The notes beneath the pieces were generated by a model. That model ran no database searches. It was not told the DNA's origin and worked only from the letters and a program-made list of their open reading frames with translations. A stretch of DNA of 64,000 nucleotides from the NCBI GenBank assembly GCA_963717145.1, contig OY970325.1, forward strand, positions 4,864,001 through 4,928,000, written 5' to 3'. The DNA comes from an uncultured Armatimonadetes bacterium. Its GTDB lineage: Bacteria > Armatimonadota > UBA5829 > DTJY01. Each line of letters opens with the position of its first letter. The stretch's first letter is position 1. A program made the position numbers and the translations under genes. Shown here in pieces: positions 34,756-52,802 of the stretch.

Positions 34756-35763
34756 ATGACCGCATCCGTATCGGTCCTCATGCCTGCATACAACGCCGCG
34801 GACACGATCCGTCAGGCCGTGACGAGCCTCCAGCGTCAGACCCTCGCCGACTTCGAGGTCGTCGCGGTGGACGACGGCTCGACCGACGGCACGGGTGACA
34901 TTCTCGATGAGCTGGCGCTCGATGACACGCGCATCAGGCCGGTCCATCTCCCGCACTCGGGGCTGATTGAGGCGCTCAATGCCGGAATCAAGCGGTGCGG
35001 CGCAGACCTCATCGCCCGCATGGACGCCGATGACATATGCCACCCTGAGCGCGTGAGGCTTCAGGTCGAGTACATGCGCGATCATCCTGATGTAAGCGTA
35101 TGCGGGTGCCTGGTCCGCTCGTTTCCCAGGAATGTGATCCGAGAGGGCTTCCTCCGCTACGAGGCGTGGCTGAACTCCCTCACCACGCACGACCAGATCG
35201 CGCGCGACTTCTTCGTCGAGAGCCCGCTCGCCCACCCCAGCGTCATGATGCGGGCGTCCGACCTGCGAGCGATCGGGGGGTACCGGGAGATGGGCTGGCC
35301 GGAGGACTACGACCTCTGGCTGCGGTTCTTCATGGCGGACAAGCGTTTCGGCAAGGTGGCGCGGACTCTCCTCTTCTGGCGCGAAACGCCCGGGCGGCTC
35401 ACGTTCACGGATTCTCGCTACTCGCTCGAGAACTTCGTACGGGCGAAGGCACACTTCCTGGCGATACTGATTCAGGCCAAGAACCGGCCGCTGATCGTCT
35501 GGGGCGCAGGAATGATGGGCCGCCGACTGACGAAGCACCTCGTCCGGGAGGGTATCCAGCCGATCGCGGTGGTTGACATCGACCCGCGCAAGATCGGCCG
35601 GACGATGCGAGGATCTCCGATCATCCCGCCGGAACAGCTTGCAGGTCATCCGAACGCATTCGTCATCGTCGCAGTGGGATCGGAGGGCGCGCGGGAGATC
35701 ATTCGCGCCAGGCTGAACGCGATGGGCCGAATCGAAGTGGAAGATCACCTCTGTGCTGCGTAG
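34756..35763 (+). CDS. Glycosyltransferase family 2
   Basis: SVLMPAYNA, VDDGSTD, ARMDADD, HPSVM, EDYDLWLR; C-terminal Rossmann-like WGAG. Confidence 0.92.
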   Translation: MTASVSVLMPAYNAADTIRQAVTSLQRQTLADFEVVAVDDGSTDGTGDILDELALDDTRIRPVHLPHSGLIEALNAGIKRCGADLIARMDADDICHPERVRLQVEYMRDHPDVSVCGCLVRSFPRNVIREGFLRYEAWLNSLTTHDQIARDFFVESPLAHPSVMMRASDLRAIGGYREMGWPEDYDLWLRFFMADKRFGKVARTLLFWRETPGRLTFTDSRYSLENFVRAKAHFLAILIQAKNRPLIVWGAGMMGRRLTKHLVREGIQPIAVVDIDPRKIGRTMRGSPIIPPEQLAGHPNAFVIVAVGSEGAREIIRARLNAMGRIEVEDHLCAA

Positions 35764-35801
35764 CCCGGGTTGCTCATGATATGTTCAGAGGGCGTGCGCT
35801 C

Positions 35802-35880
35802 TGTCATTCTGAGCGAAGTGACGAATCTGGCGAGAGCATACCTCAAGAACGCCGGATTCTTCACTTCGCTCAGAATGACA
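35802..35880. repeat. GTCATTCTGAGCGAAG-type palindromic element
   Basis: TGTCATTCTGAGCGAAGTGA (35802-35821) vs TCACTTCGCTCAGAATGACA (35861-35880), perfect 20 bp. Confidence 0.9.
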
Positions 35881-35947
35881 CGGATGATCCGGGCTAGCAG
35901 ACTGAAGAATCGGGACGATTCCTCCGAAATTCCTGGGTGGTAAGGTA

Positions 35948-37309
35948 CGTGTTGCCTCATTTAACTTTGTTACCGAAACGCCATTCGTTGCGTCATTGAT
36001 AATGTTACCAAGTAGTGTGTTCAAGTATGTCAGATCGGCTCTTGATCGCCGCTCAGGGCCGCGCCTTGCTCGCTTTCGATCTGTCTTTGTTCGGCATCCT
36101 GTCAAGCTTTGATGATAGCCTGTGGATGCGTCTTAGTAGCTCCACCGGGTTCGTCGCTCTACGTTCTTTATCGAGGCGATCCTTTGCTTCATCGTCAAGC
36201 CATCCTTCAACACTTATCAGCTTGCGGTACGGCGTCATCGCAGGCTCATAGCGTTTGATCACTTTACTCCCAATCCGCTCCTTTTCTTTAAGACGCATCA
36301 TGGGCTGACAGAAGTTGTGATACGCCACGATCAGCGGATATATCGCCTTTAGTACCGCAAGCTGCTCGTCCGTCTCGAATCGCCGGTAACCTATAAACTG
36401 CCGGACTACGCTCCAGTTCTTCTGCTCTACATGACATTGATCGTTCTTCTTGTAAGGCCGACTGCGCGTAAACGTGATCCTGTGCGCTCGACAGTACTTG
36501 TTCATGTGATGGTTGATGAACTCGCCGCCGTTGTCGGTATCTATGCCTCTGACTGCAAACGGTGCGCTCTTGGACGCGGACTGCACCGCAAGCACGGTTC
36601 CGTGCTCCCCTCGGCCTTTCATTCCATCAAGCGCTACCCATCCGGTCGCTACATCAGTCATAGTCAAAGTATACAGGAACTCTCCGCTCCCGTCACCTCC
36701 GCAATGACCCACCAAGTCCATCTCGAAGAACCCAGGCTCAGCTTCATCCCAGTCGGCAAACGTCCTCACCGGGATCTGAGACCGAAGCAGTGTCCCCGGC
36801 TTTGTTAAGGTCCTCCCTGTTAGCGATAGGGCAGACCGCTCCTTCTTCATCAACCTGTCGATGCTCGACGCGCTGATCGAGTTAAGCAGCCTCTCTTCTT
36901 CTGGTGTAACCGTTATCTCCCCGAATGACTCCAGTATGGGTAGAAACTCAGTCAGAAACGGCTGCAGACGCTTACCGCACGCGTAGAAACTCGCAGCCCA
37001 GAGTGTCTTCAGCTTGTGGGCTATCGGCTCGTATTTCGACTTCCTTGCGCGTCTCACTGGACTCCTCGCTGGTGGAACTCCTTTCGCGAACAGCCTCACC
37101 AGCGACTTCCTGTGGTAACCGGTCAATCCCTGGACTTCACTCAATACCAGCTTCTTCTCCGATTTGGTGGCTTTGCCATATTCTTTGCGTTTGCGCCTCA
37201 CGACTTCTCTTACGGATGCAGTTGTCATCTTCTCCATGCCTCAGTTTCGGTAACATTCTTATCTGAGGCAACGTTTCCGTTTCGGTAACATCGTTCGTGA
37301 AGCAATTCG
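35948..37309 (-). mobile_element. Insertion sequence with rve-type DDE transposase, doubled subterminal inverted repeats and 5-bp TSD
   Basis: AGGTA at 35943-35947 and 37310-37314; each end has two copies of TTGCNTCA-N-TGTTACC(GAAA) in inverted orientation. Confidence 0.85.
36053..37237 (-). CDS. Integrase-core (rve) DDE transposase
   Basis: TGYHRKSL, PGFFEMDLVGHCG, IDTDNGGEF, FTRSRPYKKNDQCHVEQKN. Confidence 0.9.
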   Translation of the reverse strand: MEKMTTASVREVVRRKRKEYGKATKSEKKLVLSEVQGLTGYHRKSLVRLFAKGVPPARSPVRRARKSKYEPIAHKLKTLWAASFYACGKRLQPFLTEFLPILESFGEITVTPEEERLLNSISASSIDRLMKKERSALSLTGRTLTKPGTLLRSQIPVRTFADWDEAEPGFFEMDLVGHCGGDGSGEFLYTLTMTDVATGWVALDGMKGRGEHGTVLAVQSASKSAPFAVRGIDTDNGGEFINHHMNKYCRAHRITFTRSRPYKKNDQCHVEQKNWSVVRQFIGYRRFETDEQLAVLKAIYPLIVAYHNFCQPMMRLKEKERIGSKVIKRYEPAMTPYRKLISVEGWLDDEAKDRLDKERRATNPVELLRRIHRLSSKLDRMPNKDRSKASKARP

Positions 37310-37314
37310 AGGTA

Positions 37315-37343
37315 TAGACAACACGCAGGAATCGTGCTATAAT
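37315..37343 (+). promoter_or_regulatory. Sigma70-type promoter of tRNA-Asn
   Basis: TAGACA - 17 nt - TATAAT, with TG extension. Confidence 0.7.
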
Positions 37344-37391
37344 TCCATGGCTGGCAGGGATCAGCATTCATACCTGCCAATCCGTCGATGC

Positions 37392-37464
37392 TCCTCGGTA
37401 GCTCAATCGGCAGAGCACTTGGCTGTTAACCAGGGGGTTCGTGGTTCGAGTCCACGCCGGGGAG
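37392..37464 (+). tRNA. tRNA-Asn(GTT), no encoded CCA
   Basis: Acceptor stem TCCTCGG/CCGGGGA, D arm GCTCAATCGGCAGAGC, anticodon loop CTGTTAA, T loop GGTTCGAGTCC. Confidence 0.96.
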
Positions 37465-39026
37465 CTCAACCTTTACGTACTGGACAACATCAGCACCATC
37501 TTCCCGCGCATAGAACTCGAATTCGACCGTCTTATCCTTCTGCACCACGGCTTTCTTCAGGATGAAGTCCACCAGGTGTTCCTTCTCTTCCTCCGTGCAG
37601 CCCGGAAACACAGTTGCGAACTCAGCGAAGACCTGCTGAGCCGCCTCTGCATCCACCGAGTCTGGCTTTGCCTCCTTCAGCCTGGTGCGAACGATGTTCA
37701 GTTGAGCCTTGATGGTGGCAAGCACATTCTCCAGTTCCGCAAGGCGCGTCTGGACTGATGTGCTAGCAAGGCCCTGCTCTATTGCACTCATGACGTTGCC
37801 GAGTTTGACCTCGACTTCCTTGCCACGTTGGACGAGGGCTTTCTCCTCCACCTCTATCTGCTCGGTGTTCTCGTCCGTCATGCATGCTTGAGCCGCAGCC
37901 CCCTCTATGAGCGTCCGATCCTCGGCTAACTTAGCGACAGTATCGCAGAACATCTCCTCTATGATGTCGGCATTCATTCGCCGAATATCGCAGTCGATCC
38001 CCCGGTACCTGCCGGTTCGGTAGCACTCATAGTATGGGGTATAGCCTTTCTTGCGGCGGGGATGATTCGTCGATCTTGGCACAAGGCGGCAGCCGCAATC
38101 GCCGCAGTAGATCTTGCCGACTAGATAGTAGCCATGAGGACTATCGATCCGGGGATGCCTGAATCCATCAGCGAACAAGCCCTGAACGAGATCAAAGACA
38201 TCGGCATCCACGATGGCAGGATGCGTACCCTCGACGCGTATCCCGTCATAGTTCAGTTCGCCCAGGTACACGCGGTTTCTCAGGATGTAGTCAACCTTCT
38301 GCCTGGACCATTCGCTGACCACGTCTTTGGTAGCATTCCGAAACTTGGGGCGCTTAGTCTGGGCTCCCAGGGCTATCAACCTGTCTCTCACAGCCCCAAG
38401 GCATTTGGTCTCAAGATAGGTCTCAAACATCAGTCTAACGATTGACGCCTCCCTTTCATTCGGAATGAGCTTCCCATCGAGTACATCATAGCCTAAGGCC
38501 AAATTGCCACCCGGCCATCTTCCCTGTCGGACCATTGCGGTCATCTTGTCTCTCGTTCTCTCTGCGACCATCTCGCGTTCGAGTTCGGCGAAGGTCAGAG
38601 CGATATTCCGCATAGCCCGTCCCATCGCGGTTGAGGTATCGAACTGCTCCTTGACCGAGATGAAGCTGACGCCATACTGCTCGAAGGTACGGTCGAGGTC
38701 AAAGAAGTCCGAAGGGACCTGGTGATCCGGTCCAGCTTGTAGGTCACCACCACGTCGAACTTCCCCATCTGGCAGTCCGCGAGAAGAGACTGTAGTCCGG
38801 GACGGTTTGTGTCCTTTCCGGAGAACCCGCCGTCCTCATAGAAGGCGACGATCTCCCAGTCGGGATGGACCGCTTGGATGTAGTTCCGAACGTAGTCCTT
38901 CTGAGACTCCAACGTGCTGTAGTCGCCCTCACTCTGCTCCACGGTCGAACAACGGCCATACGACACTGCTCGAACAACGCCCTTTCGCTCCATGTTGGCG
39001 CCACGCTTGGGTACTCTCTTGCGCAT
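37426..39026 (-). CDS. Large serine recombinase 1; apparent 1-nt frameshift near 38709
   Basis: YGRCST, DGGFSGKDTNRPGL, YKLDRITRS; one added G gives RSLRDFFDLDRTFEQYGVSFISVKEQFDTSTAMGR; recombinase domain, CGDCG zinc ribbon, coiled coil. Confidence 0.9.
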
Positions 39027-39027
39027 C

Positions 39028-40812
39028 TTATACTGCCTCCCCTTCTTCGGGCCAATCCAGGATGCCGAGCTCTCGCACTCGCTCCAGCGCCGTCCTCAGG
39101 CTGTCGCCGCCAACTATTCGCCATATCCGCATCCTCATATACACCACCGCTTGGACTCCTATGCCCATTAGCTTGGCTGTCTCTTCGCCGCCGTATCCAT
39201 CTACCAGCAATTGCAGGCACTCCATCTGCCGCTTGGTCGGAGGCGTTAGTCCAAGCGCCGTAGCTCGATGGGAGTAGTTGGGCGATGCCAGATGCTGGCA
39301 TGCCTTGAGAAGCATGAGCGGCGATGGGTCATCCGGGGCCAGTAAGCCGAGCGAGGCGGCCTTGGCTATTGCAGCTTCGCTACAGTGTGCTCCGAGCTTC
39401 ACCCGGATCCGGGCACGCCTGCCCGACACCGTCGATTCCGGAACACACAGTTCTTCCGCTATCTCAGGATCGGTCTTGCCGGCAGCCATCGCCTTGAGCA
39501 CCAGCATCTCCTGTGACTTGAGTGCACAGGCGTCCTCCTTTGGCTTGCCCCAGCGACCATCGAGTGGAAGGCAGTGCGCCCAGTCGGACAAGTACGGCTT
39601 GATCTTCTCAATGGCTTCCTCCAGTGATGTAACACCCAAGCCAACTATCGCATCCCTGCGATGCCTCTTTACGGTGCCAACCTTGACATTCCATCTGGCC
39701 GCGATCTGCGCGTTACTGTATCCATCGGCGGCGAGAGCGAGATAGGCCAACTGCCTGCGCCCCACGGGCGGCTTCTTGATGCCGTTCCTGGCCCGCTCCC
39801 ATTGCGAGTGCACCGGAAGCGTGAAATGGATCTCGTCGATGAACCTGATCTTAAGCTTGATCAGTGTCACGCTGTCCATGCGGCGGACTCGGATATGTTC
39901 TATCAGCATCTCGTAGACGGCACGGCGTTCTTTGGGAAGCATGGCCGACCACATAGTGGGGAAGTCGCGAAGCAGTTGTACGGCTCGGGACTGCTGGGCC
40001 TCCAGTGTCTCCAACCTGACGTGCACATTCTCCAACTCGGACAGGCGCGTGGTGATGAACGTCTTGCGGTCCGATACGGCCCTATCGTAGGCTGTCAGGG
40101 TGTCTAGCGATACCTCGTCCCTGGCAAACGCCCTGGAAAGCTCCTCCTTCTTGGAGTCAATCCTGGTAAGCTCAGACCGGAGACTCTCGGCTTCTGAATC
40201 GTGATCCTGGGGCAGCCGTTCCAGGATATCCTTTGCTACGGTCTCCGCTTTGTCCAGGACGAGCGGGTCTTGAGCGATCTTCATGATCTCGTGGTCGATT
40301 CGAGGCTCCAAGAACCCCGCAGGTATGTAAGGTCTCGACGCACATGGTATGCCGTGTCGCCGTGTATCCTCGCATCTGTACCCTCTGTAAGGGCCGTTGG
40401 GATGGACGATCCTCATTCGACCGCCGGATTCGTCGCAATACGTCAGCCGCGCGAGAGGGGCCTCCGCGCAAGACTCCGTTCTCGGCCCGAAATGCTTCCT
40501 TTTCTTCATCTCCTCCTGAATCTGGTAGTACACCGCTTCGTCGTAGATGCGGTTCTCGTGGTGTCTACCTGCTATGCATTTGCCGCCATGGCGGATCAAC
40601 CCCGCATTGAGAGGATTGCGTAGTATGCTCCGGACTACGTTCGGATGCCATCTTGGGCCACCCTTTGGGGCGGGGACTCCCTGCTGCTCCAATTCCCGGC
40701 AGATGTCAAGAAGCCCCAGCCCCCTCAGGTATGAATTGGCTATCTGGCGGATCACAGGTGTCTCTCGTTCATCAGGAGCGATACCCGGTCGGCGACTGGA
40801 GTTATTCATCAT
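39028..40812 (-). CDS. Serine recombinase 2, C-terminal part (recombinase, zinc ribbon, coiled coil) fused to three LuxR-type HTH domains
   Basis: W..VVRSILRNP..AG, G.H..I.DE..Y, LARLTYCDESGG.M, YRC; then ADGYSNAQIA..GTVKRH, AAGKTDPEIA..STVSGR, VDGYGGEETA..QAVVYM. Confidence 0.82.
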   Translation of the reverse strand: MMNNSSRRPGIAPDERETPVIRQIANSYLRGLGLLDICRELEQQGVPAPKGGPRWHPNVVRSILRNPLNAGLIRHGGKCIAGRHHENRIYDEAVYYQIQEEMKKRKHFGPRTESCAEAPLARLTYCDESGGRMRIVHPNGPYRGYRCEDTRRHGIPCASRPYIPAGFLEPRIDHEIMKIAQDPLVLDKAETVAKDILERLPQDHDSEAESLRSELTRIDSKKEELSRAFARDEVSLDTLTAYDRAVSDRKTFITTRLSELENVHVRLETLEAQQSRAVQLLRDFPTMWSAMLPKERRAVYEMLIEHIRVRRMDSVTLIKLKIRFIDEIHFTLPVHSQWERARNGIKKPPVGRRQLAYLALAADGYSNAQIAARWNVKVGTVKRHRRDAIVGLGVTSLEEAIEKIKPYLSDWAHCLPLDGRWGKPKEDACALKSQEMLVLKAMAAGKTDPEIAEELCVPESTVSGRRARIRVKLGAHCSEAAIAKAASLGLLAPDDPSPLMLLKACQHLASPNYSHRATALGLTPPTKRQMECLQLLVDGYGGEETAKLMGIGVQAVVYMRMRIWRIVGGDSLRTALERVRELGILDWPEEGEAV

Positions 40813-41383
40813 CCACCTCCCTTGCAGTTCGCCGCCAGCCGAAGCCGACCTGGCCGGTCGGATAGCCGTCCTCACGCCTTCTTGCCATCGCGGCTTTGAC
40901 ATTCTCTGCCGTGATATCCGAGAAGAGCTCGGCTGCCAATATGAGAATACCGGCGGCGAAACGACCCATCGAACGGCTTGTATCGATGCTATCCTGAACT
41001 GATATCAGCGTGACGTCGTACTTCAGGATATAGTCCTGTAAGAACTCATGCCAGACCCTGGCGTTGCGGCTCAACCTGTCGAGTCGCCAGAAGATGACTA
41101 CCGATACCTCCCCGTCGGCTATTGCCTGGACGAGCGCCGATAGACCCGGCCTGACGTTCTTTGCTGGCGATCCCGGCTTGGCGAAGCCGAGCTTTCCGCT
41201 GTAACCCTCATCAGCGAATACCTTGGCAGTGTAGTTGCCGGGCCCGAAGACGCGGTCCAGGTATTCACGGCATACTCGCTCTTGTTGCTCAAGAGAATAT
41301 CCGAAGTCCGCCTGTTCCGATGTGCTTACGCGGATTGGTATGCCAACCGAGGGTTGGCTACTTTCGTGTGCCAAAGACTTCAA
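40802..41383 (-). CDS. Serine recombinase 2, catalytic (resolvase) N-terminal part
   Basis: IRVSTSEQ, SLEQQ, DEGYSG, RPGL, WRLDRLSRN, IDTS..MGR; AAAGGAG RBS before the TTG. Confidence 0.88.
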   Translation of the reverse strand: MKSLAHESSQPSVGIPIRVSTSEQADFGYSLEQQERVCREYLDRVFGPGNYTAKVFADEGYSGKLGFAKPGSPAKNVRPGLSALVQAIADGEVSVVIFWRLDRLSRNARVWHEFLQDYILKYDVTLISVQDSIDTSRSMGRFAAGILILAAELFSDITAENVKAAMARRREDGYPTGQVGFGWRRTAREVDDE

Positions 41384-41813
41384 TTCCGGTTACTCCTTTC
41401 AGGTATTCGTGTGCACTTCGAATCACTCGCTGTTCGGCTGCAAAGATCAGGGAGCAGCCATGATTCTCGATGACATTCACAAGAAACTCGAGGCACAGAG
41501 CAAAGCGTCGAGCAATTCTATCCAAGCGGTGCACTATGACCACCTGGATCTCCCCCGTGGCCACGGCGGCAGCGAGGGCCGAAAGCCCCGGGCGGGCGTT
41601 GTCTTGGCACCGTTCAGGAACGGTAGAGCCTCGGTTTCCACCGAACCCGTCGTCGGTGTACACCTTGACCTGATAGCCTCCGGGACCGTACGCTTGGTCC
41701 AGGAAGTCGAGGCACACTCGCTCTTGGTCGACCAGAGAGCTTGCGTCGCCCAAACTCGCTGTTCGCCAGTACGGGCCCACACTGTCCAGGTTTTCGCTTT
41801 CAGAATTTTCCAT
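41358..41813 (-). CDS. Stand-alone resolvase-like domain with degenerate catalytic motif
   Basis: YWRTAS in place of YxRVS; SLVDQERVC, DDGFGG, RPGLSAL, HRLDRIAR; clear paralogue of 40802-41383. Confidence 0.75.
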   Translation of the reverse strand: MENSESENLDSVGPYWRTASLGDASSLVDQERVCLDFLDQAYGPGGYQVKVYTDDGFGGNRGSTVPERCQDNARPGLSALAAAVATGEIQVVIVHRLDRIARRFALCLEFLVNVIENHGCSLIFAAEQRVIRSAHEYLKGVTGIEVFGTRK

Positions 41814-41941
41814 CAGAACCTTCTCCTTCATAATACTACTTGGCGGCTTGTTTGTCAACACTTGACTATATATTACAACAAACGCCCGCTGTTTGATTCA
41901 AGAATGTGGCTTTACTGAGTGCATGAAGCCTGCTGTAATGA

Positions 41942-42067
41942 TTACTGCCGAGGTTCGATGACCCTTGGCTTGTCTCGCTGTCTAATGAGTCTGACAGCGA
42001 CCTGTGCTAGCAGTCTCGCCAAGCGTGCGTACAGCTCCGACTGACTATCCGGTACGCTACTGCTCAC
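41942..42067 (-). CDS. Small hypothetical protein (41 aa)
   Basis: AGGAGGGGGG RBS and GTG start; overlaps the stop of the upstream small ORF. Confidence 0.4.
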   Translation of the reverse strand: MSSSVPDSQSELYARLARLLAQVAVRLIRQRDKPRVIEPRQ

Positions 42068-42218
42068 TGCTCTCACCCCCCTCCTGTGCCTTCCGGGCCT
42101 CCAGGCGTTTCTTAGCCCGAAGGAGAATCTCCAGAGCACGGGCGTAGCGCTCGACGGCGTCTGGTGTCGGAACATACTTGATTGTTGCGGTGTATCCGCC
42201 TCGCGGCTTTCTGCCCAT
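42057..42218 (-). CDS. Small basic hypothetical protein (53 aa)
   Basis: MGRKPRGGYTATIKYVPTPDAVERYARALEILL..; same strand as, and upstream of, the recombinases. Confidence 0.5.
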   Translation of the reverse strand: MGRKPRGGYTATIKYVPTPDAVERYARALEILLRAKKRLEARKAQEGGESSEQ

Positions 42219-42240
42219 GATGACCCCACCGCCGGCTGAC

Positions 42241-42284
42241 AAACAAAAACCGCCGGCCACTACCCAAAGAATAGCGACCGGCGG
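42241..42284 (-). terminator. Intrinsic terminator-like hairpin
   Basis: Minus strand CCGCCGGTCGCTA-loop-TAGTGGCCGGCGG followed by TTTTTGTTT. Confidence 0.65.
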
Positions 42285-42344
42285 ATGGGGTGCCTCGACA
42301 ACGCTAGTGTGCACGCTAGCGTTGCCGATTTTTTGTTATAGGGT

Positions 42345-43355
42345 CTACAGGTTCAGCGATTCCCAGTCCCTCCTCAGTGTTCTCTCGTCTCGGCGGAAGA
42401 TGCCAGCATCGATCTCTTCTGCGGGATATCGATCGAGAAGGCTTTGGACCATCTCCACTATCAGACTCGGCGCATGCATCCGTCGGGCGACGTGCTGAAC
42501 TCGCACAGCATGATTCATCTGTGACTCGCCAGACGCCATTGCCTGTCGTATCTCTGAAGCGAGGCTTGCCCAATAGCTGAACTCATTGATCACTTGGATT
42601 ACGGAGTATCCGGCATCCCGCAGTTGTCGTAGCATCTCACGTCTGTGCTGCAGAAGCTCCGTAGTCTTCGATCCGCGAAACGTACGCGGGAGCTTGCTAA
42701 GTTGGATACCGTACTTAGCCCTGAGCCCGGATAGTTCACCAGTAACTTCCCGTATCGGCCGATTTCCAAATGGCGAGGTCGTGTTGACGTCGTTGGAGAG
42801 TATGGTAGCTACGCGGTTGATGTCTCCGTACCTGTATAGAGGTGTCCAGCCGTATTCCGGCAGGACAGGTGTAGGCAGCCGTTGGCGTTCCCTTTCGGTG
42901 GTTGTGCGCCAAACTAGCATCCCGAACCAGTACTCCCCGAGATCGGGCGGGGGATGAAGGCGCAGGCTGCCATCGTCGGCCATTGCATCATATGCCGCCT
43001 CCCAACTCCGGTCAATGGCTGTGAACTCCCTGTCCATACGCTCCGGATCGTAGCCGAAGACATCGCTGGCGGCTAGTCTGATGCGGCATATCTGATCGCG
43101 CTTGATCCAGCAGACCGGATGCACTTCGCCCGTCTTGGCCAAACGGGCCAGAATATGGAACGGATAGTTCAGAAACCAGATCCAGTCTTCATCTACCATC
43201 TCTCTCAGGTGCGTGGGAACACTAGCCTTAGTGAGCTGGATCTGATACTCCACGTATTGGGCTGCAGGATGACGATCTCCAAGTTCCTTGCTCAGTTGCT
43301 GTGCGAAATCCTGGGCCATTATCAGCTCATGGGGTCTGTCAGGCATGGGTGTCAT
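42345..43355 (-). CDS. Hypothetical protein, possibly with a C-terminal HTH
   Basis: 336-aa uninterrupted ORF ending ..DERTLRRDWESL. Confidence 0.6.
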   Translation of the reverse strand: MTPMPDRPHELIMAQDFAQQLSKELGDRHPAAQYVEYQIQLTKASVPTHLREMVDEDWIWFLNYPFHILARLAKTGEVHPVCWIKRDQICRIRLAASDVFGYDPERMDREFTAIDRSWEAAYDAMADDGSLRLHPPPDLGEYWFGMLVWRTTTERERQRLPTPVLPEYGWTPLYRYGDINRVATILSNDVNTTSPFGNRPIREVTGELSGLRAKYGIQLSKLPRTFRGSKTTELLQHRREMLRQLRDAGYSVIQVINEFSYWASLASEIRQAMASGESQMNHAVRVQHVARRMHAPSLIVEMVQSLLDRYPAEEIDAGIFRRDERTLRRDWESLNL

Positions 43356-43516
43356 CGTTTTACATCCTGGTGCTAAGCATCACCAATCTAGGGGTCTACT
43401 TTCCAGTCCCAATGCCTGCGGTGGCAGATACCTTCCAGCGCCGAGCTGTGAGCCAAGCGGTGGTTGATCGACCACGGGCTGCTACAGCATAGTAGAACAG
43501 GAAGGTGGTAGCGCTC

Positions 43517-43807
43517 TCATACGTGACGCTCAGATTGGGCCGCTGCCCCCTCAAGTAGCCAGCATGTAGAGCATTCCAGGGCGTCGGCTAGAGCCAGTAC
43601 TTCCAGATCAGAAACGAGCCTTGATCCGTTTTCGATGCGTGAGATATCCTGCCAAGCCGGGTTCCACATTCCGTTTGTGGCACGGGCGACTCGGGCACAG
43701 AGTTCATCCTGGACAATCCCAAGGTGATGACGGCGGTCCCTTACACGAGGGCCCACCTGGTTCATCTTCCCTTCACTGGTTCTAAGTCGAGCACCGCCAC
43801 GAGGCAT
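43517..43807 (-). CDS. XRE-family HTH regulator
   Basis: VGPRVRDRR..LG..QDEL, ISRIENGSR.V.D.E..ALADAL. Confidence 0.82.
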   Translation of the reverse strand: MPRGGARLRTSEGKMNQVGPRVRDRRHHLGIVQDELCARVARATNGMWNPAWQDISRIENGSRLVSDLEVLALADALECSTCWLLEGAAAQSERHV

Positions 43808-43809
43808 CT

Positions 43810-45405
43810 CTAGCAGCCTGTCTGAGAATTCCCCGCTATGTGGGTGAGTTTCCCATCTGCGGGGTCGCGCTGGCTGCTGTTCGATAGTGTTTTTCGCCGG
43901 ATTTCCGGCGAGGGTCTGTAAAGACCCCTTGTACCTTGATAATCAGCCTGATCCAGGTCATATATCTACGTATCGAAGATCGATTTCCGGTCGCCGTATC
44001 GGTATAGCTTCAGCATGTTGTGCCCAAGACACGCAAGCGTCCACTCCGACTTCGCTTTCGCAAGGCCTCGGAGTAGGAAGCCTCGGAAGTTCCGTGCGCT
44101 CTTGATCTGGCCGAACACCGGCTCTACCGTCTCCTTCCGCCTCCCGTAGATCTTTCGGCCAAGAGGAGTCAAGAGCTTTGCTCTCTGGCGATCTGCGGCG
44201 GATTGCTTTGCCGGATCAAGGCAGGAAGGCGCCGTCGGCTCTTTGCCATGACGTTGTCTGTCAGGCGGTATATAAGCGTCGATCCCTTGCTGCTCGACCA
44301 TCTCTATGTTGTCGCTGCTGAAGTATCCGGCATCGGCGGATAGTTCTTCCGGTTTCTTTCCGGTGTTCTCCTTGATTGCCTCGATCATGTCACTAAGATG
44401 CGGTGAGTCCGCTGCCTGGTTCGTGAGATCACACGCCACTACAATCTGATGATCTGCGTCTACCGCAGCTTGTCCGTTGTATGCCTGCACGAAGGCTTTC
44501 TTTGCGTCCTTCATTATCCGGCTTTCCGGGTCTGTGAAGTTCCGCTGTGCCTTCCCTTCCGGCTCTGTCTTTACGGGCCCCGGCTCTCTGCCGCGAGGCT
44601 TCTTCCCGGATGCTTCCTGCTCCGCCTTCTCTTGGGCTCGCATCGCTTCTTCGGCTGATGCTCGCTCTTTGGCCTCGCGCTCCAGCGCTTCTTTTGCTTC
44701 CCTGATCTTGGCGAGCCGCTTCTCTCTGGTTGCGAGTTCCTCCGGGAGTTCGTCTCCTCGGCGGTCAAGACCATATTCCGCGTCTTCCTGGTCGTCCACA
44801 GAAAGACCCTTCGCAAGGAGCGCCTCGATCTCAGCCTGAAGCTCTTTTTCTTTCTCGACCATCCGAGAGTAGCTCATGGCGGAGTGCTTGCTTGCGTTGG
44901 CAAGCAGCTTTGTTCCGTCTATGGCTATGTGTTTCATCGACACAAGCCCGGCGCTTGCGCATAGCCTGAGCACTTGCACAAACAGGTCCGCAAGGGACTT
45001 GAGATGCCTCTTCCTGAACTCGCTTATCGTGCGGAAGTCGGGATGATTTCCTGCCGCAAGCACCCGGAAGGCTACATCTTCATACGTGGCCAGGGAGAGC
45101 TTTCGAGATGAATACACTCCCCGGCACAAACCGTAGAATATGATCTTTGTAAGCATTGCCGGATGGAACGGCGGCGCTCCTCGGGCCTCTTTCTCGTATG
45201 AGGCGTATATCGCGGAAAGGTCGAGTCCGTCTACGACATCGCTCACAAAGTATGCGAGATGTCCTTGGGGAAGCCACTCCGAGATCGACGGCGGCATCAA
45301 GAATATCTGGTCGGGTTGATAAGGAAGGTATGGCTTGCTCATACCAGTATTTTACTATATATCTGGCACCTTGTGCCAGAGGTTATTTCGTGGACAGGCT
45401 GCTAG
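43810..45405 (-). mobile_element. IS1182-family element
   Basis: CTAGCAGCCTGTC (43810-43822) and GACAGGCTGCTAG (45393-45405), i.e. inverted repeats including flanking CTAG. Confidence 0.9.
43966..45342 (-). CDS. IS1182 family transposase
   Basis: HLAYFV, GAPPFHP, SSRKL, PDFRTISEFR, IDGTK..ANASK, TDPESRIM, ADAGY, RKETVEPVFGQIK. Confidence 0.95.
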   Translation of the reverse strand: MSKPYLPYQPDQIFLMPPSISEWLPQGHLAYFVSDVVDGLDLSAIYASYEKEARGAPPFHPAMLTKIIFYGLCRGVYSSRKLSLATYEDVAFRVLAAGNHPDFRTISEFRKRHLKSLADLFVQVLRLCASAGLVSMKHIAIDGTKLLANASKHSAMSYSRMVEKEKELQAEIEALLAKGLSVDDQEDAEYGLDRRGDELPEELATREKRLAKIREAKEALEREAKERASAEEAMRAQEKAEQEASGKKPRGREPGPVKTEPEGKAQRNFTDPESRIMKDAKKAFVQAYNGQAAVDADHQIVVACDLTNQAADSPHLSDMIEAIKENTGKKPEELSADAGYFSSDNIEMVEQQGIDAYIPPDRQRHGKEPTAPSCLDPAKQSAADRQRAKLLTPLGRKIYGRRKETVEPVFGQIKSARNFRGFLLRGLAKAKSEWTLACLGHNMLKLYRYGDRKSIFDT

Positions 45406-47799
45406 GGCATCGAGAACGAATACACAGGGGGCGGTGCCATCATGGCGAAGAATATCACAAGTGGCAATGCCGAAGAGGGGGCGCAGGATACTCAGGTCCT
45501 CCTCAGGTACATTGTGCATGATCTCATCAATATCAACGCCTTTGTCCACAAAGTCAGCGAAATTGGAGAACGCACCCTGTATTGCCGCTCCAGGCACGTA
45601 GAATACTGTCTGGAGTTTCTGGTCGATTGCAGGGTATACCGCCGTTGACTTTCCGAAACCAAACTCCCCCAGGAGAACTGTGATTCGTCTTCTCTTGTCA
45701 CCAAAGAGCACGGATGCAGGATCAGCTACGAAGGAATCGCCAATCTCAATCCTCTCAAGCTTATTGGGACCAACGACTACCAGGCATTCGCGCAATGGAA
45801 CCTCGGAGATCGGTTCGTATCCTGGAAAGGCCTCGATACCTGGCCTTTTGCCGGGAGACGAAGCCTGTTCCTGCAGGAATGCCTTTACCTGTTGCTTGGC
45901 GGTCTCAAATATGGTCCGCGGTATGATATCACGATACCACACCTCAGCAGTCTCAGCTTTTCCAGACTCCATGAGCTGACTCATCAGGCGGACGAGCTCG
46001 TCACGAATGTCCGCGCTATGTACATTCCGATTCAGTACAAGGACGTACCTCCTGGCCCGGAAGGGGCTCTTCATGAAGGAGTTGACAGACTTCCTGCAGT
46101 TGGCGACCTGTCTGATGCCTACCTCCTGGTCTGTCACTTTGAAGCCCTTGCACTGTATGACCAGAGGGAACGGCTGACTATCCGACCAGGATATGTAGTC
46201 AACTCCAGAGTTATCCAGGGGTGGAACTCCTCAGAGTGGGTAGAGCACGTCTCAGGCAGCCCTTGCCGCGTGCTCAATCCGAGCCAGTTCGCCACTCAGG
46301 AGGGCGGTTCTCACCGCGAGCACTGCATCTGCCCCATCCTTTGTCCACCGCATCCCGGCTTGCTTTAGCCTCTGGCTCACTATCACCTTGCACGCTGATT
46401 CCACCGGACCGCTGCCTATCATCATCCCCTTGGCCCTGTATGCCGGGTAGTTCATGTACTTCCGGTACTTCCTGAAGTCCCATCTCCAGCCGAAGTGCTT
46501 CTTGTTCCTCTTTGCCCCGAGCCTTGCGCCGCTTCATGGCTCTGAGTAGACTCCCAGGTCCCTTCTCCTTGAGCTTCCGGCAGTGCTCATTTGCCCAGCG
46601 CTTCCCTTTGGGACTTCCCTCTCCATAGAGCGCCCGCGCCAAGTTGTGTATGTGCTCGCAGGCATGCCAGTAGTCGATGATCTTGATGCTCTCCGGCAGA
46701 TGATCCCTGACCTCTCTCCATATCCAATCTGCTCCGTCAGCGATGACTATCCGCTCTTTTGCAGTACCGTAGCCGGCTTGCATTGCCCAGGTGTATACCC
46801 GTCTCCCGAACTCTTCGCTCTTCTCTTGTGCCGCTATGTAGCGCGAGTTCGTGACTGTGTCCGTGTCTTTGCCTGCAGCCGGAACGCCTTCGTATACCAC
46901 CATAGCCTTGATGTCATGCCACTGGCCATCGGTGTGCGCTTTGGCCGCGTCTATGCCAATGTAGAGCCTCTGTGGCGTCGCCTCGCAGGAGACCTCTTCA
47001 CCTGTGTCTACCGCAGAGATGATCGCTTCCTGCTCCTCTCGGCGGAGGCATTCCCCAACATCCCGGACTATCTCTTCTTCGCTGCTCTCTTCGATCGCAA
47101 TACCCGTGGTTCGCTCGATCAGCCTTGCGGCTGCTTCATATGGAAGCGCGGCGCAGATCGAGGCCGTGAGTTCTTTCACGCTGGCGGTCCATACTCTCTC
47201 GGACAGCCCCTGCTCGCGGTCCCATGGAATGTAACCCTGCCCGCAGTGGTCGCAGCGGTAATATGCCCGGCTTACCTCTGCATCTCCGTGCAACGTCCGC
47301 ACAAAGCGCTTTCGGTATCCCTTGAACCTGGCCAGTCTGCCGCATTCGCACTCTATCCGAACGCCTCTGTAGGTGGGCTTTCCGCTCATCTTTCCGGCAA
47401 CCTCACTCATCATTGCGCCGGCGATCTGGCGCGCCAGGATCTGAATACGCTCCTCGGCTGACCCCAAGTCCGCGCAATCGATGTAGCTGCGGGCAAAGTC
47501 GCGAGCGGCCTCAAGGAGGGAGTCTGTGTGCAAAAGTGTAAGCCTTCTCTGGGAGTCTCCTTTCGGAATGTTTGTCCTTCAACAAACCGTTACCGACTAT
47601 TACAGGAGACTCCTTCCTTACTTGCTACCCACTCAACGCGAATGCACCCGTTATCCAGAGTAGCTAGATCGGTGCACTCAACGATTCCAGGAAAGGCCAA
47701 GCGTAGGTAAGGTCCGACACCTCGCTGGAAATGATGTCCCTCAAGAGAACTCAAAACATTTCCGATCTGTATGATCTGAGCTTTTGCCTGCCAAGTCAT
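45402..47799 (-). pseudogene. Mrr-like restriction endonuclease fused to a NACHT/STAND-like NTPase; split by ISKra4 and truncated by IS1182
   Basis: Removing ISKra4 and one TSD copy gives ..LSSLEGHHFQ..LATLDNSGVDY..VIQCKG..; Walker A LLGEFGFGKST; ends at Walker B VFVLDAL. Confidence 0.75.
46219..47649 (-). mobile_element. ISKra4-family element copy 1 with 9-bp TSD; transposase frameshifted near 46478
   Basis: GTTATCCAG at 46210-46218 and 47650-47658; ends GGGTG..GAGTGGGTAG; IADGADWIW, IDYWHA; the GSGPVESACK tail is in another frame. Confidence 0.92.
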
Positions 47800-48365
47800 A
47801 GTGGTGTCATCACGGAATCCGTCGTCCCATGCTCGCGAATCAGGTGAACCGTTGGGTGTACAGTAGGGATTGTCAAGGTTATCCAACAGCACATCTGATC
47901 GGCTTCACCTTGCTTCTAGTATCCGGTCACTCAACTCCTCAATCCCACGTACATTCCGCCCTCGGACGCTTTGTTCCTGCAGCAATAAGAGTCACGAACT
48001 CATCCGGGGCTGACCTAAGCTCTGCCATAATCGAAGGCACGGTGTATATGTTGGGATCCGGTCGAAGAATACCAACCCCGAATGCTTCCGTGCGCAGAAT
48101 ACCGGGGCTCAGAGAAGACGCAGAAGGAAAGCCAGAAAGCAAGGACAAGAGCCAGGTGATGACCGGATCGCAGTCGTCATTGGGGGGTATTACTCGCCCA
48201 CAGAGGCCACCGCATTGATGTAAGTGATCTCTTCTCCCCGAGCGTTGAGCACGATCTGCTCGTCTTACGGCTGGTGACGGCAAACCGACTGTCTCAGCAG
48301 AGAACAGACGATAGAGTCTCTGCTGCGGGCCGTCCCAGAGCACCGGAGGGCAGACATCGGTGGGG

Positions 48366-48495
48366 GGCTTGGTGCTGTCCCAGCACGATGCCGATCAGTT
48401 CTTCTCTTGACAGGCAGCCGAGATCGTCACAACCGATCATTCGACAGCCGATCCTGGGGTACCTCCTCAGATCATCAATGATCGTGAGCTCTTGC
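48366..48495 (-). pseudogene. Degenerate left-end fragment of the IS66-like element
   Basis: Reverse complement GCAAGAGCTCACGATCATTGAT..TCAAGAGAAGAACTGATCGGCATCGT matches 49885-50015. Confidence 0.8.
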
Positions 48496-48778
48496 AGCGA
48501 CAAATCAGGGCTGACCTGTCTAATGTGGTAGTGTGTCTTGATACTACTTGAAATTGGAGTATAGTAATGCTAATTATTACAGCGTGAAGGCTGGCCACTG
48601 CATAGCACTATAGCCATCATGCCTGATTCGGGTCTTTTTGGGTGAAACTACCTTTGACACGGAGTTATCCGCCACCGGCAGGATCATGTCCGGCTTCGCT
48701 CGTCAGCGTAAGCCCGACTCGATCGGAAAAAAACGGCCTGCGCTTTTCGGAGGAAACTATGGTACAATACATCGTTAC

Positions 48779-49291
48779 ATGAAGCGGCTGCGGATAGGGA
48801 TAGATGATGGGTCAAAGCCAATGATTGAAAGGATGGCAGACATCTTGGCAGGAGTACGAGAGATCGCACAGAGTGATCTAGTGGAGATTGCGGAATTTGA
48901 GAAGGATATCTCGTTGATCTCCTTTGGCCATGAAGCGGTCACCGACCTCGATTTCCATATGCGCAAGCTGGAGACGGCCATGGCGAAGGAGCACGCAGGA
49001 ATGCTGGTGCTTGACCACGATGGGGAGATCTGCGGATGGCTCTGGATGACCGCAAAGCGGAATTCCGTCACAAACGAGAAGTATGTCAATTTCAGGAGTT
49101 TCTATATCAAAGAAGCCTACCGGGGCACGGAATACACGAAGGTCTTGTTCGATGCAGGCATGGCCTTCAGCAGAAATACCGGCGCAAAGCGCATTGTCGG
49201 CAAAGTACATGCAAGCAACCTGCCGATGCGCGTCCTGTACAAATCTTATCAATTCGAACCGACGCATATCACCATGGAGTATACGTTTTGA
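48779..49291 (+). CDS. GNAT family N-acetyltransferase
   Basis: GEICGWLW, FYIKEAYRG, VHASNLPM..LYKSYQF; start uncertain. Confidence 0.8.
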   Translation: MKRLRIGIDDGSKPMIERMADILAGVREIAQSDLVEIAEFEKDISLISFGHEAVTDLDFHMRKLETAMAKEHAGMLVLDHDGEICGWLWMTAKRNSVTNEKYVNFRSFYIKEAYRGTEYTKVLFDAGMAFSRNTGAKRIVGKVHASNLPMRVLYKSYQFEPTHITMEYTF

Positions 49292-49394
49292 ATGTCTAGA
49301 TCTGCGAAGCCCCACCCAGTACCTGTCAGACTCAGGGAACTCCCCTCTGAATCAGCGTACACGCAACGTACCCAGTCTTGGATGGAGCGAGCGC

Positions 49395-49638
49395 GGTATG
49401 GTGGGGGATAATGGTCTTGGCATACAATCTGCATGCGGCCAAGATACACCTGGCGCTGCCGAAGGTGCTTGTAAAGAAGCGGGTCAAGGCGGTTCGGTTT
49501 GCGTTGATAGACGCATCCGGTCGGATAGTGGAGCACGGACGGCAGCTATACGTGAGGCTTGCGAAGGGTCATTCCGCGCTCATCTGGCTTCTGGAGATAC
49601 GCCGCAAGGTAGGGATGCTGACTCCCTGCGAAACATAG
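49395..49638 (+). pseudogene. C-terminal relic of an IS1380-like transposase
   Basis: AVWW.IMVLAYNL..KRVKAVRFALI...GRIVEHGRQL.VRL resembles IS1380 C-termini; no N-terminal part present. Confidence 0.6.
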
Positions 49639-49884
49639 GCGAAGGCTGGCAGACTAACCAAAGCCATCGGATGCGCCCGAAGAGAGGGTGCGGGGAGTAG
49701 TCATGCCTCAACCAGCCGGGAAAGCAACATCCGACCAGCCCGAGGCTCTGCTGCATGCACATCGGACGGCTGAAGACATAACGATCCGGCATTGACGGCC
49801 ATGATCATCGCAAAAAACGAGTTCATGCCGGCCCAAATGACACAGCGCCCGGATCTGGTGGAGGATCAGGGGCCTTGCGGCGAC

Positions 49885-51361
49885 GTAAGAGTTCACGATC
49901 ATTGATAGTCTGAGCAGGAACCTTGGAGCGGACTGTCGAATGGCAGGTTGTGAACGATCTCGGCAACCTATCAAGAGAAGAACTGATCGGCATCGTCCTG
50001 GAGCAGCACCAGGCCGTCCTGGAATTGCGTGAAGGCGTGGACACCCTCACCGAACGCGTCCGAGCGCTTGAGAAGGAGAATGAAGAACTCCGGTCCAAGC
50101 TCGGTGGCGGCGGCAGGACGATACCTGCCTTTGTGAAGGCAAACCGGCCCGAGCGCAAGAAGAAGGATCGCAAGAAGCGGCAGAAGTCGTTTGCACGGCT
50201 GAGGGAGACTCCGACTGAGATCGTGGATCACGCGCTCGACACCTGTCCCGACTGCGGAAGGAAGCTCTCGGGCGGCACGGTGCATCACAGCCGGCAGGTG
50301 ATCGAGATACCGGTGATGCCGGTCAGGATCATCGAGCACCTGGTGATCGGACGGTACTGCGGAGTCTGCCACAAGATACACGTGCCGAAGCTCGACCTCT
50401 CCGAAGAGGTGGTCGGGACACACCGGGTGGGCATCCGGCTGATGAGCCTGGTGAGCTATCTCCACACTGTGTGCAGAATGCCGGTTGAGCGTGTGCAGAA
50501 GCTTCTGGAGTCGCTCTACGGTCTGCATCTCGGGCTCGGAGAGATCGCGAAGATACTCCAGAAGGTGGCCTCCATGGGCAAGCCGGAGGTAGAGAAACTT
50601 CTGCAAGCAGTCAGAGGAAGCCCTACGGTGAACGCGGATGAGACCGGCTGGCGGGAAGATGGGAAGAACGGATACATCTGGAGCTTCACGACGCCACGCG
50701 TGCGCTACTTCGTCCGAAACAAGAGTCGGAGCGGCCAGGTCGCAAAAGACGTGCTGGGAGAGGACTACGAGGGTGTAGTCGTAAGCGACTTCTACTGCGG
50801 CTACAACGTGCTGCTCGGTTGGCATCAGCGGTGTTGGGTGCACTACCTGCGGGACTTGCGAACGCTCGTCGAGGCGAACCCTGACAAGAGAGGGGTAGCA
50901 GTCTGGGCCGGCAAGGTCAAGGCCGTTTACAGGCGCGCGAAGGCATTTTCGGGCGATGATTCGAAGGCCCGGCAGAAGCGGCGAATCGCATTCGAGGACG
51001 AGTTGCTTCGACTCGCCAGACCATATGTGAAGCGGGATGTTCCGCAGAGGATACTCGCTGAGCGGATCGAGAGATTCCTGCCGGAGCTGTTTGTCTTCGT
51101 AGAATGTCCGGAAGTACCAAGCGAGAACAATGCGGCCGAGCGAGCGATCCGGCCTGCGGTAACAGCTCGCAAGATCAGCGGCGGCACACGATCGGCCAAG
51201 GGATCTGAGACCCGCATGGCGCTGATGAGTCTATTCGGAACCTGGCACTTGCGTGGTGAAGATGCGATGGAGTCATGTTGGCGAATGCTCGCGGGCGTTC
51301 CTCAGACACTCGCGACCGATCCAGCCTGACAACTTCACTATCAACGATCGTGAACTCTTAT
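49885..51361 (+). mobile_element. IS66-family element (single-ORF type)
   Basis: GTAAGAGTTCACGATCATTGATAGT vs ACTATCAACGATCGTGAACTCTTAT inverted ends; no TSD seen. Confidence 0.88.
49923..51329 (+). CDS. IS66 family transposase
   Basis: Coiled coil, CPDCG..CGVC, NADETGW, VSDFY, QRCWVH..RD, ENNAAERAIRP; start uncertain. Confidence 0.93.
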   Translation: MERTVEWQVVNDLGNLSREELIGIVLEQHQAVLELREGVDTLTERVRALEKENEELRSKLGGGGRTIPAFVKANRPERKKKDRKKRQKSFARLRETPTEIVDHALDTCPDCGRKLSGGTVHHSRQVIEIPVMPVRIIEHLVIGRYCGVCHKIHVPKLDLSEEVVGTHRVGIRLMSLVSYLHTVCRMPVERVQKLLESLYGLHLGLGEIAKILQKVASMGKPEVEKLLQAVRGSPTVNADETGWREDGKNGYIWSFTTPRVRYFVRNKSRSGQVAKDVLGEDYEGVVVSDFYCGYNVLLGWHQRCWVHYLRDLRTLVEANPDKRGVAVWAGKVKAVYRRAKAFSGDDSKARQKRRIAFEDELLRLARPYVKRDVPQRILAERIERFLPELFVFVECPEVPSENNAAERAIRPAVTARKISGGTRSAKGSETRMALMSLFGTWHLRGEDAMESCWRMLAGVPQTLATDPA

Positions 51362-51369
51362 TCATCTGA

Positions 51370-52802
51370 GGGTGCATTCGCGTTGAGTGGGTAGCAAGTA
51401 AGGAAGGAGTCTCCTGTAATAGTCGGTAATGGTTTGTTGAAGGACAAACATTCCGAAAGGAGACTCCCAGAGAATGCTTACACTTTTGCACACAGACTCC
51501 CTCCTTCAGGCCGCTCGCGACTTTGCGCGCAGCTACATCGATTGCACGGACTTAGGGTCAGCCGAGGAGCGTATTCAGATCCTGGCGCGTCAGATTGCCG
51601 GCGCAATGATGAGTGAGGTTGCCGCCAAGATGAGCGGAAAGCCCACCTACAAGGGTGTTGGGATAGAATGCGAATGCGGCAGACTGGCCAGGTTCAAGGG
51701 ATACCGGAAACGCTTCATTCGGACTTTGCACGGAGACATAGAGGTCGAGAGGTCATACTACCGTTGCGACCATTGCAGGCGGGGCTACATTCCATGGGAC
51801 CGCGAGCAGGGGCTGTCCGAGAGAGTATGGACCGCCAGAGTGAAGGAACTCACCGCCTCGATCTGCGCCGCGCTTCCATATGAAGCAGCCGCAAGGCTGA
51901 TCGAGCGAACCACGGGTATTGCGATCGAAGAGAGCAGCGAAGAAGAGATAGTCCGGGATGTTGGGGAATGCCTCCGCCGAGAGGAGCAGGAAGCGATCAT
52001 CTCTGTGGTAGACACAGGTGAAGAGGTCTCCTGCGAGGCGACGCCACAGAGGCTCTACATTGGCATAGACGCGGCCAAAGCGCACACCGATGGCCAGTGG
52101 CATGACATCAAGACCATGGTGGTATACGAAGGCGTTCCGGCTGCAGGCAAAGACACGGATACCGTCACCAACTCGCGCTACATAGCGGCGCAAGAGACGA
52201 GCGACGAGTTCGGGAGACGGGTATACACCAGAGCACTGCAAGCCGGCTATGACGGGGCAAAAGAGCGTATAGTGATCGCCGACGGCGCAGACTGGATATG
52301 GAGAGAGGTCAGGAATCATCTGCCGGAGAGCATCAAGATCATCGACTACTGGCATGCCTGTGAGCACATATACGGCTTGGCGCGGACACTCTACGGAGAG
52401 GGGAATCCCAAAGGGAAGCGCTGGGCAAACGAACACTGCCGGAAGCTTAAAGAGAAGGGGCCGGGGAGTCTGCTTAGAGCCATGAAGCGGCGCAGAGCAC
52501 GAAACGATTCTGAGAGGGAAGCGCTTCGGATCGAGACAGGCTACTTCAGAAAGTACCGCAAGTACATGAACTACCCGGCATACAGGGCCAAGGGGATGAT
52601 GATAGGCAGCGGTCCGGTGGAAGCGGCGTGCAAGGTGATAGTAGGCCAGAGGTTAAAGCAAGCCGGGATGCGATGGACGAAGGACGGCGCAGATGCAGTG
52701 CTCGCGGTGAGAACTGCCCTCCTAAGCGGCGAACTGGCTCGGATCGAGCACGCAGCACGTGCCGCCTGAGCCGTGCTCTACCCACTCTGAGGAATTCCAC
52801 CC
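51370..52802 (+). mobile_element. ISKra4-family element copy 2
   Basis: GGGTGCATTCGCGTTGAGTGGGTAG ... CTACCCACTCTGAGGAATTCCACCC; same ends as copy 1; no TSD. Confidence 0.92.
51474..52769 (+). CDS. ISKra4 family transposase (intact)
   Basis: CECG..RSYYRCDHC, YIGID, IADGADWIW, IDYWHACEH, IGSGPVEAACK, RLKQAGMRW. Confidence 0.93.
   Translation: MLTLLHTDSLLQAARDFARSYIDCTDLGSAEERIQILARQIAGAMMSEVAAKMSGKPTYKGVGIECECGRLARFKGYRKRFIRTLHGDIEVERSYYRCDHCRRGYIPWDREQGLSERVWTARVKELTASICAALPYEAAARLIERTTGIAIEESSEEEIVRDVGECLRREEQEAIISVVDTGEEVSCEATPQRLYIGIDAAKAHTDGQWHDIKTMVVYEGVPAAGKDTDTVTNSRYIAAQETSDEFGRRVYTRALQAGYDGAKERIVIADGADWIWREVRNHLPESIKIIDYWHACEHIYGLARTLYGEGNPKGKRWANEHCRKLKEKGPGSLLRAMKRRRARNDSEREALRIETGYFRKYRKYMNYPAYRAKGMMIGSGPVEAACKVIVGQRLKQAGMRWTKDGADAVLAVRTALLSGELARIEHAARAA

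Follow-up and report, generated by a model that had tools for sequence, protein, structure and literature searches.

We report two overlapping genes, here called B and C, from a 64,000-nucleotide window of an uncultured Armatimonadetes bacterium (positions 4,864,001 to 4,928,000 of contig OY970325.1; coordinates below count from the window's first letter). The genes are inherited together, are both under selection, and jointly encode all the domains of a large serine recombinase (LSR) plus a C-terminal array of LuxR-type helix-turn-helix (HTH) units. We consider it probable that gene C is the DNA-binding subunit of an LSR that was split by gene fission, with gene B as its catalytic subunit. 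A sequence-only reading of the region had taken gene C for an LSR in one piece with three tandem LuxR/NarL-type HTH domains; the Resolvase domain in fact lies on a separate open reading frame (ORF), gene B, in another frame. The features that carry the argument are the following, where dN/dS is the ratio of nonsynonymous to synonymous substitution rates.

39028-40812, minus strand: gene C, probable DNA-binding subunit, 593 or 594 amino acids (aa) (ORF, Pfam, homologues, model and fold matches)
40465-40797, minus strand: recombinase domain of C, residues ~5-115 (PF07508; model)
39790-40452, minus strand: zinc-ribbon domain of C with an inserted coiled coil (PF13408; secondary structure of the model; Foldseek matches to 4kis, Bxb1 and PhiC31)
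39565-39774, minus strand: HTH unit 1 of C, residues 346-415 (GerE 33.9 bits, E = 2.4e-08; helices; dN/dS 0.30)
39340-39528, minus strand: HTH unit 2 of C, residues 428-490 (GerE 36.1 bits, E = 4.9e-09; four helices; dN/dS 0.33)
39055-39252, minus strand: degenerate LuxR-like HTH unit 3 of C, residues 520-585 (GerE 18.7 bits; model; dN/dS 0.105)
40802-41383, minus strand: gene B, probable catalytic subunit, 193 aa (PF00239, E = 6.6e-25; homologues; model and fold match)
40802-40820, minus strand: B/C junction (sequence; same layout in the related loci L001, L002, L003, L004 and L010)

Domain content of genes B and C

Gene C starts at the ATG at 40812 (594 aa) or at 40809 (593 aa) and stops at 39028. 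Pfam finds in it Recombinase (PF07508, E = 3.2e-14), Zn_ribbon_recom (PF13408, E = 3.7e-06) and two stretches of GerE (PF00196, E = 4e-21), and no Resolvase catalytic domain (PF00239). Pfam and an AlphaFold2 model (51-row alignment; mean predicted local distance difference test, pLDDT, 90.9) agree with the earlier assignment of recombinase, zinc-ribbon and coiled-coil parts ahead of the tail; the positions of the coiled-coil helices (residues 203-229 and 235-289, at 39943-40203; pLDDT >89) come from the model. By Foldseek, the front of C matches the LSR-DNA complexes 9y66, 9dxh, 4kis, PhiC31 and Bxb1 (E 2e-08 to 1e-03), with matches to the recombinase domain and zinc ribbon including 4kis, 9y66 and 9iu2, and with 326-390 columns aligned to coiled-coil-containing LSR chains. 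Gene C has the recombinase domain followed by a zinc ribbon and, in its model, the coiled coil by which LSRs are recognized, and it lacks both the catalytic domain and the placement of all domains on one chain. Its five close homologues (592-595 aa, 43-79% identity, 98-100% coverage) share its start position, and PF00239 was found by Pfam in none of the five. Between the window and L001 or L003, dN/dS of C is 0.20 overall and 0.15 in the front region.

The LuxR motifs quoted in the sequence-only reading are present in the translation of gene C. When each tail unit was scanned alone against GerE (PF00196, Pfam gathering cut-off 23.5 bits), units 1 and 2 passed and unit 3 fell below (E = 1.3e-03). 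At the level of Pfam the claim of three LuxR HTH units holds for the first two; in the AlphaFold2 model it holds for all three, with four-helix units at residues 351-413, 432-486 and 526-581. The helices of unit 1 are placed at residues 351-361, 366-373, 377-391 and 396-413, and those of unit 3 are modelled at a pLDDT of about 96. Taken as a whole, the tail is matched by Foldseek to the LuxR-type HTHs of DegU (7x1k, template modelling score 0.82 on the target), RhlR, LasR and CviR, at E 0.02-0.1. All three units evolve at dN/dS below 0.35, with 0.11 for unit 3 after rounding. The three C-terminal LuxR/GerE-like units are genuine, and the third is a divergent, strongly conserved member. No such tail is present in the solved LSRs matched by the C model. 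The roles first proposed for it, extra DNA-site recognition or regulation, are plausible.

Gene B is read in a frame one base back relative to gene C and, in its model, contains a Resolvase fold, an alpha-E helix and a disordered GFGW arm at residues 178-193. The nucleophile of B, S20, lies within the motif RVSTSEQ and is retained in ≥90% of 18 aligned B rows, in which R18, D58, R78, R100, D102, R103 and R106 are invariant. The best fold match of the B model is the catalytic domain of TP901-1 integrase (3bvp, E = 2.7e-11, Foldseek). Resolvase is the only domain in all 16 close homologues of B (186-215 aa, 58-86% identity), and dN/dS, window versus L001 or L003, is 0.11-0.12. The retention of catalytic residues at such dN/dS values, with B before C at every locus compared below, points to continuing selection for catalysis and to co-inheritance of the two genes.

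The junction, its relatives and competing explanations

At the junction, a GGAGG motif (40820-40816) precedes the ATG ATG of C (40812-40807), and the TAA of B follows at 40804-40802, so that the start of C overlaps the end of B by 8-11 nt, in the +1 frame relative to B. Six loci were compared: the window, the metagenome contigs L001, L003 and L004 (junction) and L002 (only B's last codons), and the Armatimonadia metagenome-assembled genome (MAG) L010. In all six, the stop of B lies 7-14 nt past the ATG of C, the frame of C is +1, and 6-8 nt before the ATG there is a Shine-Dalgarno-like motif. The other five loci share the split at 43-82% protein identity. In addition, one contig from a separate metagenome (short reads) covers 40224-40894 with 28 substitutions and no gaps. 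No RNA run with matching sequence was listed among the public runs; the four runs examined contained only 5-7% of the sampled words, and such covering contigs from them derive from relatives and not from the window's strain. Against P0052, a single metagenomic protein of 815 aa, B aligns to residues 14-183 (40% identity) and C to residues 195-771 (34% identity, all three tail units included), which places the break in the linker that joins the catalytic part to the recombinase domain. Judged by these comparisons, the split is conserved and is not an error, and the layout is typical of translational coupling.

One alternative is that a single-chain recombinase only looks split through a sequencing error, or has recently become a pseudogene, and that the module is a dead relic. 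We hold this explanation to be very improbable, and for the family it is largely refuted. It could draw on the adjacent recombinase genes D and E, which carry a 1-nt deletion in the same assembly, and on the surroundings, an island rich in insertion sequences (IS) with a degenerate ORF A; against it stand the same split in five other loci, the constant length of 16 B and 5 C homologues, dN/dS of 0.11-0.20 and the contig from the separate metagenome that is gap-free across the junction. Nor is the tail a read-through artefact absent from homologues, as the sequence-only reading had allowed, since the homologues retain it. Programmed +1 ribosomal frameshifting, prfB-like and with GGAGG as stimulator, would instead fuse B and C into a protein of ~780 aa. 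The +1 frame of C in six of six loci and the Shine-Dalgarno-like motif just before the overlap would suit such a mechanism, as would the frame of C in the window, which is open for 31 codons upstream of the ATG. However, the loci have no slippery codon in common, B ending in GAA TAA, GTC TAG, CTC TGA, GGA TGA, ACC TAA and AAG TAG. In L001 a TAA closes the C frame five codons ahead of the ATG, which leaves only AGG GAG GAG TCA AAT GTC as a shift zone; none of these codons, nor any of the junction codons of the six loci, re-pairs in +1, and the ATG stands at proper Shine-Dalgarno spacing in every locus. Because the junction codons vary without +1 re-pairing and L001 has this TAA, independent initiation of C fits better, and we regard frameshifting as improbable.

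Fused relatives place the pair in a wider clade. An exhaustive phmmer search with C returned 2215 cluster representatives at E ≤ 1e-3 (44 at E ≤ 1e-30), and 150 listed among them were screened with hidden Markov models (HMMs) built from B, the front of C and the three units. A B-like domain together with the front, i.e. a complete single-chain recombinase, was found in 109; 31 have the front without a B-like domain, and 10 have neither. At least one tail unit is present in 84 of the 109 full-length relatives at E ≤ 1e-2 (63 at E ≤ 1e-4), with one unit in 39, two in 33, three in 11 and four in 1, counts that are approximate as the unit HMMs were built from only six sequences. The tail of gene C is, on this count, not a one-off fusion. 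The same three-unit tail is carried by the fused relatives P0052 and P0053 (784 aa). When ten proteins were checked with Pfam, eight showed Resolvase, Recombinase and GerE (counting P0053, whose GerE is below cut-off) and the other two were split forms without Resolvase. Among the 31 representatives without a B-like domain, nine are at least 480 aa long and start at the linker; apart from P0005, P0049 and P0050, which belong to the window's own split family, the remainder could be additional cases of splitting or gene-call fragments. P0091 and P0135, at ~25% identity and roughly 500 aa, begin at a PFGW/GW linker motif and have no catalytic domain, which may reflect independent fission at this point or fragmentary gene calls.

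Searches of other collections gave few further cases. Genome contigs searched by profile gave no relative with the C alignment and 54 loci with the B alignment, where the HMM screen found a B-C pair only in L010; the rest are mostly small serine recombinases of roughly 200 aa, with some longer Resolvase ORFs without the tail. Viral contigs yielded none with C and, with B, 84 loci, of which 80 were kept, none above 36% identity. A word-index search with P0052 returned only P0052 itself and ordinary LSRs at ≤31% identity. The nearest ESM Atlas clusters, a lead only at a score of 0.84 (<0.9), are proteins of 305-374 aa with Recombinase, mostly also with a zinc ribbon and mostly without Resolvase. 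By HMM, the giant proteins P0149 (2854 aa), P0186 (6566 aa) and P0191 (3836 aa) contain 5-12 tandem tail-like units, so tandem arrays of LuxR-type HTHs also exist outside recombinases. Full-text literature searches, with subscription journals and supplements outside their coverage, gave no LSR with a LuxR/GerE tail and no naturally split serine recombinase, in line with the sequence-only reading, which knew of no described recombinase with such a tail; no characterized member of the tail-bearing clade was found either. A split LSR with a LuxR-type tail appears undescribed.

Under the fission reading, the ancestor would have been a single-chain recombinase that already had the tail, of which fused forms survive, and gene B, with the catalytic domain, the alpha-E helix and the minor-groove arm, would end where ordinary enzymes have their domain linker. 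ORF A, B, C and D/E would form one operon at the edge of an integrative island at a tRNA-Asn gene. Translationally coupled B and C would then assemble, probably on DNA, as a two-piece enzyme. Dimers of C would read the site or its half-sites via the recombinase and zinc-ribbon domains, and the coiled coil of C would govern synapsis as in known enzymes, while B would supply S20, the alpha-E helices and the rotating tetramer core. The HTH array might recognize further DNA at the flanks, or link the enzyme with gene regulation. We put forward only tentatively, and with some doubt, the fuller proposal that B and C are a natural two-piece recombinase in which an untethered catalytic subunit is recruited non-covalently and the three-HTH array reads accessory DNA beside the crossover site. 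Its corollary, that such reading would give an LSR an arm-site-like or res-like architecture, is offered with the same reserve.

The main rival is that C is a domesticated, catalysis-free DNA-binding protein that either regulates transcription in the island or assists the adjacent integrase in an architectural or directionality role, with B separate or weakly acting. We think this unlikely, though it deserves more weight than the two explanations above. C has no catalytic domain and bears three domains typical of transcription factors; its neighbour varies, being an LSR in the window, L002 and L010 and a tyrosine recombinase in L001; and LSR coiled coils are a known target of directionality control, as the titles of solved complexes also indicate. 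On the other side, B precedes C with overlapping stop and start in all six loci, B keeps its catalytic residues at low dN/dS, and the relatives that carry this tail in fused form are complete recombinases.

Several observations weigh against the fission reading itself. C is complete in three of the six loci, being frameshifted in two (L004 and L010) and running off the contig end in L003, and the L001 pair lies beside tyrosine recombinases, so that the partner of B-C is not fixed. With D/E frameshifted, ORF A degenerate and the island full of IS elements, the module may be inactive in the window's genome. The approximate character of the tail counts belongs here too. In known serine recombinases a covalent link holds the catalytic domain and the DNA-binding part together, and no natural untethered case is known to us. 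A complex prediction of B with C scored 0.19 (mark 0.32), which counts neither for nor against.

A covalent link between catalytic and DNA-binding parts is generally regarded as a requirement of serine recombinases. Retargeting by zinc-finger, transcription activator-like effector (TALE) or Cas9 fusions relies on this link, and to our knowledge engineers have so far obtained separable modules only by covalent fusion. If B and C do act as a split enzyme, this link would be dispensable, and the pair would offer a natural model for a catalytic module supplied in trans. Beyond the pair there is a large, apparently unstudied clade of serine integrases with one to four LuxR-type HTHs past the zinc ribbon. 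Model integrases use simple attachment (att) sites of 40-50 bp; should the HTHs read DNA, this clade would depart from that scheme in how sites are recognized and directionality is controlled. If the pair is inactive, an annotation point is what is left, namely that such ORF pairs should be neither merged nor called pseudogenes.

The operon and its island

The other features of the operon and of the island edge are listed below.

41358-41813, minus strand: ORF A, degenerate truncated paralogue of B (Resolvase at 4-102 of 145, Pfam)
41830-41858, minus strand: predicted sigma-70-type promoter TTGACA-17-TATTAT upstream of ORF A, B and C (consensus scan, 11/12 matches)
37426-39026, minus strand: genes D and E, together one canonical LSR (Pfam on both pieces)
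37392-37465, plus strand: tRNA-Asn (GTT), at the edge of the low-G+C island (ARAGORN; G+C content)

ORF A is 38% identical to B, has RTAS where B has RVST and is missing the alpha-E half; in L001 it is shortened to 90 aa by a stop codon, and from these features it looks like a decaying duplicate. The predicted promoter sequence is kept in L001. The second recombinase begins directly past the stop of C, as D (38595-39026) and E (37426-38625), and its E piece is 23% identical to C. The D/E frame is broken by a 1-nt deletion near 38709-38713 relative to the homologue in L002, whose ORF is intact there and runs off the contig end, and contigs of relatives in two independent runs have one extra base at 38709 or 38711; the deletion may be a real mutation or an assembly error. 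The 3' half of tRNA-Asn, read on the opposite strand, encodes the last 13 codons of E (37426-37465). In L010, where the order is B, C, a second LSR and then tRNA-Gln, the homologous recombinase frame likewise runs into the tRNA gene, and on the strength of these two overlaps the integrase C-terminus seems to depend on the junction with the target tRNA. L001, the closest relative, has no second serine recombinase and no tRNA; two tyrosine recombinase genes follow its B-C pair (4774-8427 of that contig), and a ribonuclease P RNA gene (8066-8427) lies about 3.3 kb away.

From ~36000 to the end of the window, the G+C content falls from 0.62 to 0.52-0.58. The window has a single occurrence of the 23-nt 3' end of tRNA-Asn, and no second copy marking the other end of the island was found in the window or the genome; genome-wide matches to the tRNA region (78-80%, positions 4-62 only) were taken for other tRNA genes. 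No att sites were identified. A repeated-motif search near the operon (35500-48500) likewise gave no candidate HTH or recombination site, only IS terminal repeats and one coding similarity between the coiled coils of C and E. None of 40 host relatives has C at E ≤ 1e-20, which fits horizontal acquisition.

Upstream of the operon are two small ORFs (41942-42314), one starting MGRKPRGGYTATIKY and one ending SELYARLARLLAQVAVRLIRQRD, conserved with L001 in DNA and protein. They have no Pfam or NCBIfam match and could be small DNA-binding or directionality factors. A 336-aa ORF at 42345-43355, upstream of the module, also has no Pfam or NCBIfam match, and a strong terminator-like hairpin (42284-42250) follows it. 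On the other flank, an IS at 35951-37272 with 29-nt terminal inverted repeats and an rve-domain transposase (36053-37237) lies just upstream of tRNA-Asn, and there is a promoter-like site on the tRNA side at 37315-37343. Further into the island, a transposase cluster at 43810-52769 includes a DDE_Tnp_1/DUF772 element with inverted repeats (43810-45405), UPF0236-family genes (46274-47533 and 51474-52769) and an IS66-family gene (49923-51329). The low-G+C island also holds a secondary-metabolite-like set at 53302-63981 with a BtrH_N protein, a carbamoyltransferase and a BpsA_C-domain protein, along with one nonribosomal peptide synthetase module (condensation-adenylation-thiolation, C-A-T) at 57100-60249.

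Comparison with known systems

With B and C joined, the domain order is the same as in known LSRs of phages and mobile elements (A118/LI integrase 4kis, the SPbeta-type enzymes 9y66 and 9dxh, PhiC31, Bxb1 and TP901-1). The pair differs from these enzymes in being two polypeptides instead of one and in ~250 extra C-terminal residues, which make up the three LuxR-type HTH units; identity to solved LSR chains is 13-18% for C and 12-29% for B. The fused P0052 and P0053 and the LSRs of ~680-820 aa with GerE tails have the same domains in the same order, with three tail units in P0052 and P0053, which are 32-34% identical to C and 40% to B. Unlike the pair, all of these are single chains with a catalytic domain, and one was named 'site-specific DNA recombinase' by its source.

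Several serine recombinase genes in the same orientation at the edge of an element are also seen in CcrA/CcrB of the staphylococcal cassette chromosome mec (SCCmec) and in the triplets of serine integrases in Streptococcus integrative and conjugative elements, which insert in protein-coding genes and not in tRNA genes (PMC4701971). These enzymes are complete single chains without HTH tails, unlike B and C. Membership in named families was rejected: NCBIfam scores for CcrA, CcrB and CcrC were 26-67 bits against cut-offs of 700-900, and those for XisF, the fdxN-element excision recombinase of Anabaena, were 69 (B) and 41 (C) bits against a cut-off of 375. XisF is the best-scoring named recombinase model for both genes.

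With the HTHs of the LuxR/NarL/GerE group (DegU, RhlR, LasR, CviR and NarL), the tail of C has the four-helix HTH fold in common. Unlike the proteins of that group, C carries the fold as a tandem array of three that ends one half of a recombinase, without a receiver or ligand-binding domain.

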